Positions 15,032-24,633 of a DNA stretch of 64,000 nt are shown here, piece by piece. This stretch comes from Escherichia coli (GTDB lineage Bacteria; Pseudomonadota; Gammaproteobacteria; Enterobacterales; Enterobacteriaceae). The notes beneath the pieces are model-generated. The model saw nothing but the letters and a program-made list of their open reading frames with translations. It was not told the origin of the DNA and ran no database searches. The position numbers and the translations under genes were made by a program. Position 1 is the first letter of the stretch. Every line of letters begins with the position of its first letter. The stretch lies in NCBI RefSeq assembly GCF_048403405.1, contig NZ_CP183129.1; one strand, written 5' to 3'.

Positions 15032-15304
15032 ATGGTCACAGTTAACCTTCATTGTCCCCGTTGCCAGTCCGTTCAGGTTTACCGTCACGGGCAGAACCCC
15101 AAAAGACATGATCGATTCCGCGGCCGTGACTGTCACCGGGTATTTCAACTCAGTTACTGTTACGAGCCCCGTAAACCGGGAGTTAAAGACCAAATCGCTG
15201 AAATGGCTTTCAACGGTGCCGGGGTTCGCTATACTGCCCGTACGCTGAAAATCGGCATTAATACAGTCATCCGAACTTTAAAAAACTCTCGCCACGAAGA
15301 ATAA
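15032..15304 (+). CDS. insA: IS1 InsA (zinc-finger / HTH transposition inhibitor)
   Basis: 90 aa MVTVNLHCPRCQSVQVYRHGQ... aligns with IS1 InsA by eye. Confidence 0.8.
   Translation: MVTVNLHCPRCQSVQVYRHGQNPKRHDRFRGRDCHRVFQLSYCYEPRKPGVKDQIAEMAFNGAGVRYTARTLKIGINTVIRTLKNSRHEE
15280..15286 (+). promoter_or_regulatory. A6C programmed -1 ribosomal frameshift motif of IS1 (aaaaaac)
   Basis: Motif at the insA 3' end, as in canonical IS1. Confidence 0.6.
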
Positions 15305-15322
15305 CGTCATCCCCGGTCGCTC

Positions 15323-15738
15323 ATGCTGATGTGGCACTCATCTGCGAACGTAGTCAGCAATGGAGCTTTGTCGGCAGTAAAGCGCGACAGCACTGGCTCT
15401 GGTACGTGTACAACACGAAAACTGGTGGTGTTCTGGCCTACACTTTTGGCCCCCGGACTGATGAAACCTGTCGTGAACTGCTGGCGCTGCTTACCCTTTT
15501 ACCATCGGCATGTTGACCACTGACGAATGGGGTAGTTACGCTAGAGAGTTACCAAAGGAGAAGCATCTGACTGGTAAGATTTTTACTCAGCACATTGAGC
15601 GTAACAATCTGACCCTGAGAACCCGAATCAAACGTCTGGCCCGCAGAACCATCTGTTTCTCGCGTTCTGTAGAACTTCATGAAAAAGTCATCGGTGCTTT
15701 TATCGAAAATATATGTTCTACTAATTGGAGTCATCACC
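15323..15738 (+). pseudogene. insB: IS1 insB, interrupted by an additional frameshift near 15480-15510; reading frame also runs past the right IR
   Basis: InsB-like sequence split between two frames (…AYTFGPRTDETCRELLALLTLLPSAC* / …PFTIGMLTTDEWGSYARELPKEKHLTGKIFTQHIERNNLTLR…). Confidence 0.6.
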
Positions 15739-15793
15739 CTTCTGATGAGCTTTCCTTGGATGATTACCAGACTGAATACACAGCCAAAGATTT

Positions 15794-16117
15794 TTACCTC
15801 ATTCTGCTCTTTTTTCTCAAATGACATATATTATATTTTACATCATATTCATAGGTATATGACATTCCCCCGCCCCCCATTATGTCATTGTGGGTTGATG
15901 TTGGGCTTTCATAAAAAAATACATCTTTTTTTGAACTAGCATTAATTATATTTACTTTATATATTAAAATATTTTCTCCATCTGGAAATATTTTAGCCAC
16001 ACAATATAAAGCAGCTAAATCCGAATTACTTAAAAATATATTGTCATCACTCATAACTCCAGCCATTAAATGACTGGAGACTAAAGCAAGGAAATAACAA
16101 CATTGTATTGCCTTCAT
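15794..16117 (-). CDS. putative immunity protein for the orphan Rhs C-terminal toxin
   Basis: 107 aa from ATG 16117 (MKAIQCCYFLALVSSHLMAG...), GGGAG RBS, start 1 nt after the orphan rhs-CT stop; N-terminal hydrophobic segment; AT-rich. Confidence 0.55.
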   Translation of the reverse strand: MKAIQCCYFLALVSSHLMAGVMSDDNIFLSNSDLAALYCVAKIFPDGENILIYKVNIINASSKKDVFFYESPTSTHNDIMGGGGMSYTYEYDVKYNICHLRKKSRMR

Positions 16118-16118
16118 T

Positions 16119-17654
16119 TTAATTACTCCCTTGCCTGATAATTGCAACTCCATTCCCTTTAGCTTTGGGATTATATTTTAGATAGGTGTTATTTGGTGTT
16201 CCCAAGTAACTACTGTATTCTTTTTTTCCCATTCCATTCATATAAGAATTCGTTAAATCTTTGCTTGAAAAATTTAGACTATCATAAACATCATTTTCTT
16301 TTGTTACTTTATTTCCTTTATCGTCAGAGTAAAAACCGTGAGTGTGATAATCACCTACTCTCTCTGAACCTTCAGGGCATTTTATATTTCGCAAGTCTAC
16401 ACTATCATTATCATTTGAACTTATCGGATTCATAGGGAAATATTCACCTTGCTTCTTACATATTAGTCCACCATATTCTTTATTCTTGTTAATTGATTCT
16501 CCATTACACATTGCCAATGCAAATATTCCAATATCATCTATATTTTTTGATTTAAATTCATATAATCCTAATGGATCCATGCCATTCACCGGGCTCAGCG
16601 GATATGTATACAGGTTCCATCCCCCCTTCAGCCCAATCGGATCCTGAGTGATATACCGCCCCTGCAGCGGGTCATAATAGCGGTGGCGGTTGTAATACAG
16701 GCCGGACTCCTCATCATACTGCTGACCCGGCAGGCGGATGAGCTGCTGCAGCTGATGCGGGTTCTCTTCATTCAGCTGGTTACCCCATTCATCGTATTCT
16801 GCGCACCATTCTGTTGCCCCTTCCGTGCTGACAAGCGCCAGCGGCAGGCCGCGATGGTCGCAGTGGTACAGGTGGATTTTTCGCGCCGGCGTGTACACCG
16901 GGTCCATCTGGTTTTGTATCTGCTCCACCGTCAGGCCGCACGATGCCAGCCAGCGGCGGCTTTCCTCGCTCACCCGGTCAGCCAGGATTTCACTTTCCAG
17001 CCGGTCGAGCATCTGCACCAGCACCGGCGGGAACACCACACTGCCACCGTCTTCACCGCCGGACTGCTGAAGCGCATCCGCCAGGCTGCGGCGCTGCGTT
17101 TTCGCCAGCTCACCGGTGGCAGTTTCAACTCTGATGAGTGGCGTGAAGCTCCCCGGCTGATAAACCGTCTGGATGCGGGTTCTGTCGTTCTGTATTGTGG
17201 TCAGCCGGTCGCCGTCCCAGCCGTACCAGGTCACTTCCGGTTTCCATGACAGCGACATCCAGCCCGTCAGGTCCCGTTCACGCCGCCATACCCGTTTTGC
17301 CACCCTGCGGCCCAGCAGGTCGTAAAGATAGCGACTTTCGACCAGCGGCTCTGCATATTGTGTCCGCGTGTAGTGCACCAGCCGGTGCCGGCTGTCGTAA
17401 TGGTACCGGTGAGTCCGCTCATCATCCGTGCGGATAACCCCTTCCGGGATGAGGTCGGTTTTCTCCGTCAGCCTGCCGTGACGGTCATACCGGTAAAGAT
17501 AGTGCGCGTCACGGGCGATACGGTTATCCGGCCATGCGCTGAGGGGGCTGTCCGGGTGCAGCTCCGGGTCGGGCAGGCGGTTGCCTGCCGGGTCCGTGGC
17601 ATACGGGATATCAATGCCCAGGTTACATATAATAATAAGAGCAATTAACTTAAT
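16119..17654 (-). CDS. orphan Rhs C-terminal module: 5'-truncated rhs core ending in the DPLGL motif plus a distinct ~150 aa toxin tip; no start codon of its own
   Basis: Frame is open from 17654 but first ATG/GTG/TTG is at 17378; residues ...[22 protein letters not shown]...[39 protein letters not shown] are near-identical to the main rhs; tip contains YHTHG. Confidence 0.7.
16606..17608 (-). repeat. ~1.0 kb direct repeat (orphan copy) of the rhs core 3' region
   Basis: Near-identical to 20946..21938 (only scattered mismatches on visual alignment). Confidence 0.8.
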
Positions 17655-17981
17655 TTATTTGTTTATAATGCGCTTACTTAATACAAACCATTGAATATAC
17701 CCTCCTGACAGAAAATAAAGCCATATTATTATCGCCATAATATACTTACTATCAATCCTTACGCCAATAATGTCTGAAACAGTCCCTATAAATATTAGAG
17801 CAATAAAGAATACTATGCCTGTTGGAAAACAGATTACCATCATTCCATAAGACATGAGACTAATTAACTCGCTCACATCACGAGTGGAGTCTAATAGTGA
17901 AAGTCTATGCATGGAAAAGAATAGTATTAAAAGCGATAAAGCCAGCCATATAGCTCTGAATAAAAAAATAATATATTTCAT
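17655..17981 (-). CDS. small polytopic membrane protein (108 aa), candidate stranded immunity protein
   Basis: MKYIIFLFRAIWLALSLLILFF...; about three hydrophobic helices; AT-rich; stop codon directly abuts the orphan rhs frame. Confidence 0.4.
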   Translation of the reverse strand: MKYIIFLFRAIWLALSLLILFFSMHRLSLLDSTRDVSELISLMSYGMMVICFPTGIVFFIALIFIGTVSDIIGVRIDSKYIMAIIIWLYFLSGGYIQWFVLSKRIINK

Positions 17982-18059: not shown

Positions 18060-19260
18060 GAATCATTAGACCAGTCAGGGCAAGATTACGAAAGCCCGCT
18101 CCCCGCAAGGACTGACGCGAGATAGTTTCTGTCCATGGCTGCTTTTCGCATCTTACGTCTTAACCCTGCCTTGAATACCTTATCATTCGTCAAAATATTA
18201 ATAGCAATGTGCCGTATCCCTGAAAATAATTCTGCTGCGTTTCCTCTTCTTATTTTGCAGTCGTCTTCATTCATTACCACGTCCAGACGCCAGTGCAGCT
18301 TATTCTCCACGTGCCAGTGGTTTCGGATTGCTGTGGCGAACTTCTCAGCGGTTAAATCAGCAGAGCTGATATAATATCTGACCGTCATTTCTGGCTCTTT
18401 CTTTTGTTCTGCTATTATTGACCGAAAGGAGACTGCCACGTATAATTTTTCAGTCCTTTCCATTCAAATGTAAAATCAATAAGTTCATCAGGGACATCGC
18501 AAACAATATGAAGACGGATTTCTTCTCTGCCGTGACTCTTTTCACTAATTGCGTAACTGTCATGCTCTGGATTAATTAATTCTTTCAGCGGAAATGTTTC
18601 CTCAAAGGCTTTATTCAGCCGCCCCTGGTTTCCTTTTACAGCGAATAAGTAATCACCACCCTGTTTTTGTATCTTCTCTGCAATATCTTTCTGGCAACCC
18701 ATCGCATCAGTTGTGATGATTTTCTCTTTAATATACAAAATGTTAAGAAGTTCAGGGATAGCTGTGATCTCATTAGATTTCTCATCCGTCCTGATCTGCC
18801 CCAGGACCAGAATGTGCATTGTTGAGAACGCACTAATGACATGAATCGCTCCCCTGCGGCGACTCTTGTCATAAGAATGCCGGAGTGTTTTTCCATCAAT
18901 TGCGATGACGTCTTTATCATCTGAAGTATGGCAATCTCGCATCCAGTTAATAAAGCACTCGTGAAATTTTGCAGGACTGATACAGGATACAACTCTGGCG
19001 ATGGTATCGTGAACAGGAATACCATTTTCAAAATCACCGTATTGTTTTAAAAAATCGAGATGTGTTTCCCCAAAATCCTCTATATCTTCCCAACCTTCTG
19101 CACCCGAAATAACGGCACAAATAGTCAACAGTAGAATATCCGATAATTTATGTTCCACTTTCCAGGCTTGTCTGTAATCGGGGATAATAGAAATATGCTC
19201 CATCAATTTTTTAAGTTCCATTTTGTTCTCCTTAATTATGTAAGGAGTATTTGATCATGT
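18060..19260 (-). mobile_element. H-repeat / ISAs1-family element (approximate boundaries)
   Basis: Contains the H-rpt transposase; termini not defined by eye. Confidence 0.5.
18086..19221 (-). pseudogene. H-repeat-associated (ISAs1-family) transposase, split by a frameshift near 18415-18463
   Basis: 268 aa N-terminal piece ([28 protein letters not shown]...) and 125 aa C-terminal piece (…[21 protein letters not shown]…) in different frames. Confidence 0.75.
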
Positions 19261-19324: not shown

Positions 19325-19920
19325 TTATTTAGTACAAAAAAGCAGCGTTACGTGATCTTTCCCTGGCATGTCATTAGATGAACCAGTTATACAACCCTCG
19401 GAACAGAATCGAGGTCCTAAAGACGGACCAAAAGCGTTTAAACAACTATGTATTGAAAATCCATTACGATTATAAGTTCCTGTATTAACTGACGGTACTA
19501 ATCGTATGCCGTCAGGTTTTCTATTGCTTGCTCCCGGGTCATTAACATTCCAACTCCATAGGCCTTGAGGTATTGGCCCTCTATTTATAAATGTGTACAA
19601 CGGGGATTATTTTTACATTGCATATTATTACCAGAAGCGACTGGAATACTAAGCACATCATAAAAATTATCATCACCTGGTATATCTGAAACACACGAAA
19701 GCATACCTAAAGTTATGCTGTATAAACAGGTGGCTAATCCCAAGGGGATCGATTCCAGAAATCGGGTTCAACGGATACTGATAAAAATTCCACCTACCTT
19801 CCAGCCCAATCGGAGCCTGAGTGTTATACCGCCCCTGCTGCGGTTAATGTTACCGATAATAGTTATAGTACAGCCCTGATTCATCATCATACTACTGCTG
19901 CGGCAGTCTGATGAATTATT
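19325..19920 (-). pseudogene. degenerate orphan rhs-CT remnant (rhs core 3'-end fragment with stops and intact DPLG codons, then a decayed tip)
   Basis: 19770..19920 is roughly 75% identical to the rhs core end by eye; translation gives [51 protein letters not shown] then a stop; 91-aa ORF 19325..19600 follows. Confidence 0.55.
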
Positions 19921-19924
19921 GCTT

Positions 19925-20392
19925 TTACGGATTCTCCTTATTCTTCCTTCTATCCATTCGCTTTAGCTTTAGCTTTTTGAGATCTTGAAGTTTGCTCTTT
20001 GCATCAATATTACCGTTATTTACAGCGAATTCCATCCAATAAATAGCTTTATTCAAATTATAATGTTCTGATAATATTGGATTTGTATCCGATAAAAAAA
20101 ACCCATAATTAAACTGCGCTGTAACACTCCCCTGAGATGCTGATCTTTCTAAGTATCGCAATTGTTTGTAAATGTTATTTTTAGTAAAGCAGTAATATTG
20201 ATATAGTCGAAATGATGCCTCTGAATCACCATGTTGTGATTTATACTTCAGTTTCATCAACTTTTCTTCACTTAAATCATAGGTCATTGCTGTAGACCCC
20301 ATCATACTTTCGTTTTGTTTTATTTTCACATCAGCACCATGCAATTGAAAAATAAAAGAGAAATAAAAAAATAGTAACAAGCATGCTTTCAT
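19925..20392 (-). CDS. putative Rhs immunity protein, secreted, Sel1-like repeat
   Basis: 155 aa; signal peptide MKACLLLFFYFSFIFQLHGA; Sel1/TPR-like segments (…ASQGSVTAQFNYGFFL…, …AIYWMEFAVNNGNIDA…); starts 12 bp after rhs stop; AT-rich. Confidence 0.6.
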   Translation of the reverse strand: MKACLLLFFYFSFIFQLHGADVKIKQNESMMGSTAMTYDLSEEKLMKLKYKSQHGDSEASFRLYQYYCFTKNNIYKQLRYLERSASQGSVTAQFNYGFFLSDTNPILSEHYNLNKAIYWMEFAVNNGNIDAKSKLQDLKKLKLKRMDRRKNKENP

Positions 20393-20403
20393 ACATCTAC
20401 AAC

Positions 20404-23400
20404 CTATCTTATATCACTGGGTTTTTCTGGCGTACCTTGCATATTAGAAATGGGGTGCCCAGATGGCCCATATGTTATCCAATTACCAAGGTCTTTTGTT
20501 GTTATAGCCATTAGATCCTTATTTGAATTAAGGTTCGTTGGTGCTGTTAGCACTGTATCCATTTTTAACTTACCATTAGTTCCTCGCCCCCACCACGTCC
20601 ATAGCGTGTCAGGTCCTATTACATTTGTATGTAACTCTTTAGCTAATTGGCTAGCAAATGAATTTTGTCCTTTACCTGTATTACAAGAAAATAACCAAAC
20701 TGTCATCCCATCTTTATAATTCCCATCAAATTTAATTAGATATGCTAGATCTTTAGCTGTCATGATACTGCGCGTTGCGGATTCAATAGATGTGGGGGTA
20801 CCATGCCCCCCGATTGTGAAAACGCCTGGGATATTAATCTCATCAGCTACAGAATGGATAAGATCACTTTCGGGGTATAAATTTATATCAACCAAACCTT
20901 GCGGATCTACATTTATGACCGGATCCAACGGATACTGATAAAAATTCCATCCCCCCTTAAGCCCAATCGGATCCTGAGTGATATACCGCCCCTGCAGCGG
21001 GTCATAATAGCGGTGGCGGTTGTAATAGAGGCCGGACTCCTCATCATACTGCTGACCCGGCAGGCGGATGAGCTGCTGCAGCTGGTGCGGGTTCTCTTCA
21101 TTCAGCAGGTTGCCCCATTCATCGTATTCTGCGCACCATTCTGTTGCCCCTTCCGTGCTGACAAGCGCCAGCGGCAGGCCGCGATGGTCGCAGTGGTACA
21201 GGTGGATTTTTCGCGCCGGCGTGTACACCGGGTCCATCTGGTTTTGTATCTGCTCCACCGTCAGGCCGCACGATGCCAGCCAGCGGCGGCTTTCCTCGCT
21301 CACCCGGTCAGTAAGGATTTCACTTTCCAGCCGGTCGAGCATCTGCACCAGCACCGGCGGGAACACCACACTGCCACCGTCTTCGCCGCCGGACTGCTGA
21401 AGGGCATCCGCCAGGCTGCGGCGCTGCGTTTTCGCCAGCTCACCGGTGGCGGTTTCAACTCTGATGAGTGGCGTGAAGCTCCCCGGCTGATAAACCGTCT
21501 GGATGCGGGTTCTGTCGTTCTGTATTGTGGTCAGCCGGTCGCCGTCCCAGCCGTACCAGGTCACTTCCGGTTTCCGTGACAGCGACATCCAGCCCGTCAG
21601 GTCCCGTTCACGCCGCCATACCCGTTTTGCCACCCTGCGGCCCAGCGGGTCGTAAAGATAGCGACTTTCGACCAGCGGCTCTGCATATTGTGTCCGCGTG
21701 TAGTGCACCAGCCGGTGCCGGCTGTCGTAATGATACCGGTGAGTCCGCTCATCATCCGTGCGGATAACCCCTTCCGGGATGAGGTCGGTTTTCTCTGTCA
21801 GCCTGCCGTGACGGTCATACCGGTAAAGATAGTGCGCGTCACGGGCGATACGGTTATCCGGCCACATGCTGAGGGTGCTGTCCGGGTGCAGCTCCGGGTC
21901 GGGCAGGCGGTTACCTGCCGGGTCCGTGGCATACGGGATGCGGATATCCAGATTCGCTGCGGTGGTGTGGACGCCGGTCAGCCTGCCGGTGTCGCTGTAG
22001 CTGTAACTCCGGGTCTGGCGCGGGCTGCTGATGCGGATGAGTTCGCCGTTGTCGTTCCAGGTGTAATCGCGGTCATACTGCAGGCTGTTCAGGTGCTGGC
22101 TCTGTAACTGCCCGGCAGAGGTGTAAGCGGTGGTGAGTTCATAACGGCCGAAGCTGCGCAGCGTTTCCCGGTGCAGGCGGTCGCGGGTGAAATCCACCAG
22201 CGGTGTGTCGCCGAGTTTCATGCCTGACAGCCAGCCGCTGCCGTAGGTCAGCCATTCCACGGCGGGCAGGCTGTCCGGTATACAGCGGTTCGCCAGTCCC
22301 TGCGCGTTGTACGCATGTCTGGTTTCATGCTGCCAGAGCAGTGCTTCCGTCTGCGGGTGATGCACCGTCTGGCGCTCACCGGTCAGGCGGCCTTTCTCAT
22401 CATACCCGTAATGCACCGTCACCCGGTGGCCTTCGCTGAGATGGCTGATGCCTGTCAGCCAGCCGCGTTCGTCGTACCGCCACTGTTCTGCGGTTTCACC
22501 ATTCACCGTTCGCTGTGTGATGCGGTCTGCTTCGTCATAGTGCCAGTGGGTGACCAGCCCCTCATCCTCGCTGCGGATAAGTTTGCCGGTCAGGTCGTGG
22601 TGATAACGCTGTGTGCGGCCGTCAAAGCCGGTTTCCTGTATCAGCCGGTCAAGTACATCGTAACGGAAGGTGGTGTGGCTGCCGTTTTCACTGGTCAGGC
22701 GGATGACCCGCCCGGCAGCATCGTATTCCATACTGCGCGTCAGACCGCCCTGCGTGGTACGGATGGCCTTTCCCCACGCATCGTACTGTGTCCCGTTTCT
22801 GCTGTCGTCCGGGGCAATGACGGCGGTCAGGTCACCGGCGGCGTTGTATTCATACCGCGTTTCATGGCCCTGCATGTCTTTCACCGCAATTAACTGTCCA
22901 CGGCTGTCGTATGCGCGGTACTGGCTCAGGCCTTCCTCGCGGTGCACCGTCGTCACCTGACCAAAACGGTCATGGTCATAGCGGGTTACATAACCGGAAC
23001 AGTCGGTAAAGCTCAGCAACTGACCGTAACGGCTCCACGTCATGGTTTTCCGGCTGCCGGTGGCATCTTCCGTTGCGCAGGGGAAGTCACTGTGTGGATT
23101 ATCATAACGGTAGCGGGTGATATCGCCGTCAGGGGCGGTTTCCTGAATCAGACGGCCGGATTCATCATATTTGCGGCGCAACTCCAGCCCGTCAGTCCCG
23201 GTGGCTGACGTTAACTGGTTGTGGTGGTTATAGTAAAATGCCGATGCCCTGCCATCCGGTGTGGTGATGCGCGTGATGAGTCCCGTCACCACATCCGGGC
23301 TGTACTCAGTCGTCCGGCCTGCGGCATCCGTCTGTGCCTTAAGCCTGCCCACCGCATCAAACTGACTCTGCGCGACGCTGCCGTCCGCGTGTTCCTTTTT

Positions 23401-24633
23401 CACCACCCGCTTCAGCCCGCCTTCGCCCTGCGTGTGCAGCACTTCACGGCGGTCCAGACTGTCGGTGATGGTGATGCGGTCTTTCTCATACTGATACGTG
23501 TAGCTTAAGCCTGCCGGGTTTAGCTGCTCTGTCACCCGCCCGTCGCTGTCGTAACGGTAACGGATTTCCGGCCGGCCCGCGCGGCGGTGCGCCACCATCC
23601 GGCCCCGGTATTTATCATCGTAAGTAAAGCTGCGCACCTGTTTGCCACTGCGGTCATACACCGCCGCCAGTTCGCCGCGTGGCGTCCAGCCATAGCGCAC
23701 CAGCGGCGCGGCAGGTAAATTCTCCGGGTATTCAGGGTCGTGTGTCAGCCACACGGCAGACAGACGGATACCGTTGTCCCGGCCATATTCCGTGTAGTCC
23801 GGCAGGGTATCAGGAAAAGCGGACGGTTCCGTCCCGCCGGAAGTGGCCTTCTGCCGGGCCTCTTCTGCCCGCTGCGCCTGCGTGGTCAGTACCAGCCGGA
23901 AGTGACGCCCGGCACCATCCGTCACGCCGGTGATTTCGCCGCTGAATTCACCGCCAGCCTCACGGTGAAACGTCTGTGTGCGCCCGAAGCGGTCCACCAG
24001 CCCGGTCAGTACCCGGTACGGCGGCAGCGGCGCGGGCAGCACCTCATCCGCCTCCGGCACCTGCTCACACCAGCCGAGTACCCACCACGGCCCCTGCGGA
24101 CTGTTTGTCGCCAGATAACGATGCGGACTCAGGCGGAGTTCTTCCGGCAGCGCCTGCCAGAGTGCGGCCAGCCGGTGACCTTCATCCAGTTTCAGGACAC
24201 CGCCACGCACCAGCCAGAGTGATTCGCTGCGGCTGTAACCGTCCTCACCGGGAAACAGGTGCTCAAAATACAGGCTCCTGCCGCCGTTATCACTGAGTAT
24301 CAGTGTGTTATCGCGCAGCTGTAGGCGGATATCCGCAGGCATTTTCCAGCCGGGGCCGAGGCTCCCCACCGGCGCGGGCGTTTTTGTCCGGTAACTGCTG
24401 TAGGTGCGGGAGAGGATGAACGGCAGCGGGCCGGGCAGGGCAAGGTCGGTTTCGCCGGGAAGGACCTTCGCACCGAGCAGCGGATTGACCGGATGGCCGG
24501 ACGTCACCCCGCCGGGGCACACCGAACAGGCCACGCCGGTGGGGGCACCAATACGTACCCCGGCAGAACCCTGAACAATGCTACCGCCATACTGCGTCAT
24601 GTCGCCCTGACGCGCCGCCGGTTTTCCGCTCAT
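20404..24633 (-). CDS. rhs: Rhs-family polymorphic toxin (PAAR-like N-terminus, YD repeats, core ending PxxxxDPxGL, variable C-terminal toxin tip)
   Basis: 1409 aa; N-terminus [31 protein letters not shown]; many YD-type repeats; ...[14 protein letters not shown] followed by a ~162 aa AT-rich tip. Confidence 0.9.
20946..21938 (-). repeat. ~1.0 kb direct repeat (main rhs copy) shared with the orphan rhs-CT
   Basis: Near-identical to 16606..17608. Confidence 0.8.

Follow-up and report, generated by a model that had tools for sequence, protein, structure and literature searches.

The main Rhs gene in a stretch of 64,000 nucleotides of the Escherichia coli chromosome (NCBI RefSeq assembly GCF_048403405.1, contig NZ_CP183129.1; hereafter called the window) encodes a protein whose C-terminal tip is probably a caspase-fold (clan CD) cysteine protease toxin, paired with an exported immunity protein of the Sel1-repeat type. 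The fold class, the conserved His/Cys dyad, the position of the tip after the DPQGL motif and the linked exported immunity gene could be shown by computation. A clan CD fold with a His/Cys dyad is very likely for the tip, and it is likely that the tip has toxic activity and acts as a peptidase.

The Rhs locus sits between metJ-yiiX and rpmE-priA on the E. coli chromosome, and an identical arrangement is annotated in strain TUM14771; the main gene is named 'RHS element core protein' by RefSeq. The NCBIfam model RHS_core spans residues 1-1247 of the Rhs protein (2610 bits), the model TIGR03696 (Rhs_assc_core) stops at residue 1247, and DUF6531 is found in the N-terminus (E 1.9e-18). Because RHS_core covers residues 1-1247, the tip was taken as residues 1248-1409 (Table 1). 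It is the sole domain C-terminal to DPQGL and ends in ...PSDIR, with the stop codon of the gene at 20404..20406. Cleavage at DPQGL would be expected on the precedent of other Rhs and Tc proteins. Translation of 20404..20940, together with the span of RHS_core, confirmed a preliminary description of the window in which the tip, of about 162 amino acids, began right after DPQGL and carried an xGHG motif followed by D/F-x-C-x-x-G. His1277 (in GGHG) and Cys1317 (in FSCNTG) are spaced 40 residues apart, Cys1317 is the single cysteine of the tip, and the tip is mildly acidic (pI, the isoelectric point, 5.7; 13 K+R vs 16 D+E). GC content is about 0.62 in the Rhs core but 0.39 in the tip, and it is lower still, at 0.31, in the immunity gene; the drop at the core/tip border is the usual Rhs core/tip discontinuity. 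The locus has the parts of an Rhs toxin cassette: a full Rhs core, a DPxGL boundary, a low-GC variable tip and a small immunity gene directly downstream.

Table 1 Features of the Rhs toxin cassette, with positions in the window
Feature	Position	Strand	Remarks
Main Rhs gene	20404..24633	minus	Intact open reading frame (ORF), 1409 amino acids
DPQGL motif, Rhs residues 1243-1247	20893..20907	minus	Last residues of the Rhs-associated core; the tip is expected to be released here by autoproteolysis
C-terminal tip, Rhs residues 1248-1409, 162 amino acids	20407..20892	minus	Predicted clan CD peptidase toxin domain, C80/DUF4347-like ('Tox-Caspase')
His1277 (tip His30), codon cat, in GGHG	20803..20805	minus	Just after model strand 24-28; predicted general base
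Cys1317 (tip Cys70), codon tgt, in LFSCNTG	20683..20685	minus	Just after model strand 64-68; predicted nucleophile
Cognate immunity gene, 155 amino acids	19925..20392	minus	YibG family, with Sel1/TPR-like repeats; 'sel1 repeat family protein' in RefSeq
Predicted Sec signal peptide of the immunity protein, residues about 1-20, MKACLLLFFYFSFIFQLHGA/D	20333..20392	minus	From hydropathy and conservation in homologues

A word-indexed protein search with the tip returned Escherichia and Salmonella copies alone, at 44-47% identity. A seed profile (A1) was made of four E. coli and Salmonella tips, and its exhaustive search against 1.84 billion representatives gave 729 proteins at E<=1e-3. When the best 150 of the 729 were rescanned, 201 domain copies were obtained, 146 of them within 90 amino acids of the C-terminus. 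In mid-sized relatives the region upstream of the domain is mostly RHS/YD-shell, and a few relatives join the domain to ADP-ribosyltransferase or RelA/SpoT-like domains. In giant proteins of 2,000-7,400 residues (P0028-P0036, P0040, P0058 and others) the domain is present internally, a long way from the C-terminus, in two to five copies with distances of several hundred to about 1,800 residues between them; at least one copy, the third in P0028, has lost both the His and the Cys. As far as their arrangement goes, the internal copies fit the multi-site self-processing of giant toxins that was proposed in 2012. When three internal copies and one giant protein were scanned against NCBIfam, the sole match was an unrelated XopAI-like region.

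The conservation of the two residues was assessed in two alignments, A2 with 60 diverse copies (mean column identity 24%) and A4 with 32 internal copies from the giant proteins. Only two columns of A2 are invariant, those of tip His30 and Cys70; Gly31 is nearly invariant (at least 90%), and no basic residue is found among the invariant or at least 90% conserved columns. The His and Cys are likewise invariant in A4, and Cys70 is also invariant in alignment A3. The hhalign probability of A2 against A4 was 100%, and by this comparison the two sets of copies clearly belong to one family. An HG...C pattern by itself carries little information; here it goes beyond chance because His30 and Cys70 are the sole invariant columns across 60 diverse relatives.

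When members of A2 were scanned singly against family models, Peptidase_C80 was matched by two at E<=1e-3 (best 1.5e-4), DUF4347 by eight at E<=0.1 and Peptidase_C13 by four, and CHAT and Peptidase_C25 were also weakly matched; all these families fall in clan CD. The A2 profile had one match only in the Protein Data Bank (PDB), legumain 6azt (E 0.1), where the HG of the tip aligned with His178-Gly and its SC with Ala-Cys220, at equal spacing. We take His178 and Cys220 to be the catalytic pair of this legumain. The A4 profile gave non-significant PDB matches only, among which legumains were aligned in the same way, alongside unrelated proteins. An AlphaFold2 (AF2) model of the tip built from A2 had a pLDDT of 93.2 and a pTM of 0.89, and in it His30 and Cys70 each lie two residues beyond the end of a strand (24-28 and 64-68, respectively). 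In a Foldseek search of the AlphaFold Database (AFDB) with the model, relatives at 28-35% identity were annotated as Peptidase C80 or DUF4347.

The tip also has the general characters of clan CD: the alpha/beta/alpha sandwich shared by C11, C13, C14, C25, C50, C80 and CHAT, the order His then Cys with each residue after a hydrophobic core strand (VFTIGGH30G, VWLFSC70), a Gly following the His and a small residue preceding the Cys. The assignment at clan level holds because of the C80, DUF4347, C13, CHAT and C25 matches, the legumain alignment, the AF2 model and the Foldseek results. The closeness to metacaspases that had been suggested along with the clan holds no further than that level: neither a Peptidase_C14 match nor the p20/p10 organisation was found for the tip, which has the clan-level fold and the His-then-Cys dyad in common with C14 caspases and metacaspases, and its nearest relatives are the C80/DUF4347 group. 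Two other readings of conserved segments were rejected. FSCNTG as the nucleophile elbow of an alpha/beta-hydrolase was dropped, hydrolases being absent from the structural and profile matches. A conserved N-terminal D-x-N-L-F/Y-P was considered as a Leu-type self-cleavage site; it is treated as structural because it is absent from the internal copies and located in the first strand of the model.

The domain had not been recognised in the preliminary description as a described Rhs toxin domain. It matches Tox-Caspase, defined in 2012 (PMC3482391), and the same tip has been modelled in RhsA of enterohaemorrhagic E. coli (EHEC; PMC7216683). Tox-Caspase, a purely computational definition, has a caspase-like alpha/beta fold with a conserved H followed by a C (Zhang, de Souza, Anantharaman, Iyer and Aravind 2012, Biol Direct 7:18; PMC3482391), and was recorded at the C-terminus of RHS-repeat gammaproteobacterial toxins linked to a type VI secretion system (T6SS), as well as in arrays in Streptomyces-type giants, where some copies lack the catalytic residues (PMC3482391). 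The tip is like Tox-Caspase in being a caspase-like H/C domain that is C-terminal on RHS proteins and occurs as internal repeats in giants. It differs in its partner, an exported Sel1/TPR-like protein of the YibG family, whereas Imm36 and Imm57 are the immunity partners listed for Tox-Caspase (PMC3482391); the identity of the immunity partner is an association and not a defining feature of the domain. The analysed tip or YibJ, its counterpart in E. coli K-12, was presumably among the Tox-Caspase members of 2012. Toxins of this kind were already predicted by comparative genomics in that year.

In the model the tip is structurally closest to the C80 self-cleaving domains of MARTX, TcdA and TcdB and to DUF4347 proteins such as Tce1. 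The C80 cysteine protease domains (CPDs) of Vibrio cholerae MARTX (3fzy, 3eeb) and Clostridioides difficile TcdA/TcdB (3ho6) are about 210 amino acids long and have a basic pocket through which inositol hexakisphosphate of the host activates them; they cut their own chain after Leu. The tip, in contrast, has 162 amino acids, is acidic with no conserved basic column, would be set free by the protease of the Rhs core and is paired with an immunity protein; the C80 model of Pfam is not matched by the tip itself, only through its relatives. The lack of a conserved basic residue and the pI of 5.7 argue, at the level of sequence, against an inositol hexakisphosphate pocket in the tip. Tce1 and Tce2 (PA0256 and PA2372) are Hcp3-loaded putative cysteine protease effectors of the Pseudomonas aeruginosa H3-T6SS (Nat Microbiol 2026; PMC13323088; PDB 9qpe), and the toxicity of Tce2 in yeast is abolished by the substitution C115S (PMC13323088). 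Unlike the tip, the Tce proteins are free-standing Hcp cargo without an immunity gene; the sequence identity between Tce and the tip is 12%, no similarity is detected by HMMER, and Tce1 falls in DUF4347.

The immunity ORF begins 11 nucleotides past the Rhs stop. The Pfam matches of its product are weak (TPR_27, E 0.0014; Sel1, E 0.65), and its homologues bear the name sel1 repeat family. The N-terminus has a basic start, a 12-residue stretch at a Kyte-Doolittle hydropathy of 2.5 and the sequence LHG-AD, and a signal-like segment of this kind is kept in every full-length homologue examined, at 45-90% identity. The gene order of tip and immunity gene is retained at 33-47% tip identity in Salmonella, in metagenomes and in another genome, and the genes 3' of diverged tips also have the signal feature, in Salmonella as well as in an Rhs locus from a metagenome and at a further, more distant locus. 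At another locus a neighbour that is not of the Sel1 type also opens with a hydrophobic N-terminal segment. One apparently signal-less immunity protein, at locus L010 (GCA_002950295.1, CP026872.1), was rejected as a mis-called start, the true ORF beginning with MRYFLFIFITIPLISGGH. The toxin homologue there (P0046; L010:3950-4709) is frameshifted near its 3' end and the immunity start is called 54 nucleotides too late; the signal peptide was lost from the annotation because the toxin frameshift led the gene caller to the late start. Automatic annotation can thus hide the export signal in this immunity family, and z5018 of strain EDL933, annotated at 132 amino acids, is a like case.

The signal peptide of the immunity protein had been taken earlier as a pointer to action in the envelope, and its conservation in all full-length homologues examined strengthens that suggestion. 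An export signal conserved on the immunity protein favours action in the envelope, and the periplasm or envelope is, on these sequence grounds, somewhat the likelier site. The single Cys, the mild acidity and the lack of a conserved basic residue would fit a periplasmic enzyme working without inositol hexakisphosphate.

By analogy with Rhs and Tc proteins, the tip would be enclosed in the Rhs YD-repeat shell and freed by the aspartyl autoprotease of the Rhs core, which would cut after DPQGL. A T6SS spike could take up the tip via the N-terminal PAAR-like/DUF6531 region, leading to its injection into neighbouring bacteria. In the target, the His1277/Cys1317 dyad would cleave one or more envelope or periplasmic proteins; thiol-dependent cleavage of peptide bonds would be expected from the fold and from the C115S result with Tce2. 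In contrast to the C80 domains of toxins directed at a host, the tip would probably not require inositol hexakisphosphate. Siblings would be shielded by the Sec-exported Sel1-repeat protein, presumably by its binding the tip and blocking the active site in the periplasm.

Several points weigh against an antibacterial protease toxin delivered in this way. The tip alone had no match in Pfam-A, NCBIfam or the PDB sequences, the sequence links to clan CD are all sub-threshold or made via relatives, and the Foldseek search of the PDB with the model was weak (best E 0.023, with a MARTX CPD first). The PAAR_motif match at the Rhs N-terminus is weak and partial (E 0.13 over 19 residues), rpmE is directly upstream of the main rhs gene, and neither vgrG nor a T6SS gene flanks it. 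For signal peptides, hydropathy and conservation were the only criteria, and no toxicity, cleavage or immunity assay of the tip was found in the literature searched. Additionally, the nearest characterised T6SS relatives are not antibacterial, since Tce1 and Tce2 are non-toxic in E. coli, lack immunity genes and are proposed to be anti-eukaryotic (PMC13323088). The latter observations, with the toxicity of Tce2 in yeast, would suit a clan CD peptidase toxin acting in the cytoplasm of the target or on eukaryotic cells, as proposed for Tce2 or OspB; the C80 domains of MARTX, TcdA and TcdB act in the host cytosol, and a thiol nucleophile stays reduced more easily in the cytoplasm. Such a site of action is nevertheless quite unlikely for the tip, as a dedicated immunity gene that is conserved points to an antibacterial role, all examined homologues of the immunity protein keep its N-terminal signal, and the pI of 5.7 without a conserved basic column is a poor fit to an inositol hexakisphosphate pocket.

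It could also be supposed that the tip is mainly a processing peptidase or a relic and is non-toxic, the Sel1 gene being unrelated or protecting in some other way. Most Tox-Caspase copies were indeed described as releasing peptidases (PMC3482391), the domain recurs in two to five internal copies within proteins of 2,000-7,400 amino acids and is also found beside ADP-ribosyltransferase or RelA/SpoT-like domains, and the K-12 copy is a nonsense pseudogene. This supposition is highly improbable when set against the architecture of the cassette: there is nothing C-terminal of the tip to release, Rhs proteins already possess a protease for release at DPxGL, tip and exported immunity protein remain tightly paired at 33-47% tip identity, and C-terminal Tox-Caspase copies were considered likely toxins in the same study (PMC3482391). 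A different objection accepts the fold and the dyad and concerns the chemistry, which might be non-hydrolytic, the thioester being resolved by an amine (transpeptidation, ligation or cross-linking) or the bond attacked being a non-protein envelope amide. Precedents for an amine-resolved thioester exist within clan CD in the glycosylphosphatidylinositol (GPI) transamidase and the asparaginyl ligases. As the closest matches of the tip (Tce1, the CPDs and gingipain) are hydrolytic peptidases and no ligase-type determinants are seen in its sequence, non-hydrolytic chemistry is unlikely. In its fullest form, which is very unlikely, it would make the tip the first antibacterial enzyme of clan CD to function in the oxidising periplasm with no cofactor from a host; the exported Sel1-repeat protein would block it, and its action on a component of the envelope would be that of a transpeptidase or ligase, possibly cutting or re-linking the proteins tying the outer membrane to peptidoglycan. 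If true, most E. coli would carry a new mechanism of killing.

The cassette of tip and immunity gene was found in 3,507 of 5,426 complete E. coli genomes (about 65%), mostly at 95-99% identity; immunity homologues at 90% identity are common. The immunity gene is annotated as yibG in E. coli genomes with the cassette, and some toxin copies that are 97-98% identical are labelled DUF8616 by RefSeq. The K-12 genes yibJ-yibG and the EDL933 genes for RhsA (EDL933_4854/z5017) and RhsAI (z5018) hold the same cassette as the window, with 98% DNA identity over tip and immunity gene. In K-12 the cassette is an orphan module, yibJ-yibG, 3' of rhsA-yibA, whereas in the analysed genome it forms the tip of a full-length Rhs protein at the rpmE-yiiX locus. 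In yibJ (NC_000913.3 3767221-3768638) a CAA-to-TAA change at tip Gln82, just past the Cys motif, makes the gene a nonsense pseudogene; yibG is intact, and common laboratory strains may therefore be immune, so that toxicity tests in them may give false negatives. The pair rhsE-ydcD was considered as the K-12 equivalent of the cassette and was rejected as unrelated. In K-12, yibJ-yibG is followed by Rhs remnants (yibS, yibW) and then by yibV, annotated as 'PF15596 family protein'. The latter may be Imm57, listed in 2012 with Tox-LD-peptidase and Tox-Caspase in gammaproteobacteria.

The carriers include O157:H7, where the cassette is the tip of the main RhsA. A published EDL933 primer, rhsA2R, matches the analysed tip sequence, and in EDL933 the tip ends RhsA. 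The structure 3HO6 is the protease domain of TcdA. It served as the template (TM 0.73) for the RhsA tip in an in-silico EHEC study, where the result was read as 'small-GTPase inhibition' and z5018 was called a TPR/Sel1 immunity protein (PMC7216683). The C-terminus of z0268, a Rhs/PAAR protein in the T6SS island of EDL933, was modelled there on the MARTX protease domain 3fzy (PMC7216683), so that clan CD tips in E. coli may number more than one.

Being small, with a two-residue active site, an exported immunity protein and a wide distribution among complete E. coli genomes, the cassette is a convenient test case. Caspase-fold proteases are known in bacterial toxins chiefly as self-cleaving helper domains that use a host metabolite as the switch. 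In the literature searched, there was neither an antibacterial test of the caspase-fold killing domain predicted since 2012 nor a tested example acting in the periplasm; also, no paper naming DUF8616 was found, and no functional study of yibJ, yibG, DUF8616 or an Rhs protein with clan CD or Sel1. The substrate of the tip would reveal what a periplasmic protease can hit to stop a competitor.

Remains of further Rhs modules lie beyond the immunity gene. Directly 3' of it, at 19325-19900 on the minus strand, is a decayed Rhs core end (…YDDESGLYYN…DPLGIS, with stops), followed by an ORF of 91 amino acids with an HS…SEGC motif, which has a weak match to the Tlde1 L,D-transpeptidase-like T6SS effector domain (PF10908, E 0.011). 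This ORF looks like what is left of an orphan toxin, truncated by the ISAs1/H-repeat element. A second orphan Rhs fragment (15794-17378, minus) contains an ORF of 419 amino acids (16119-17378) with a near-identical core end and a DUF4329 tip (E 2.9e-16), and the ORF of 119 amino acids after it is the RefSeq 'RHS element protein dsORF-f3'. The gene ybfB (17655-17981) lies between the two orphan modules, and the array is broken up by two frameshifted elements, an ISAs1-family (H-repeat) transposase and an IS1 copy (18086-19221; 15032-15824).

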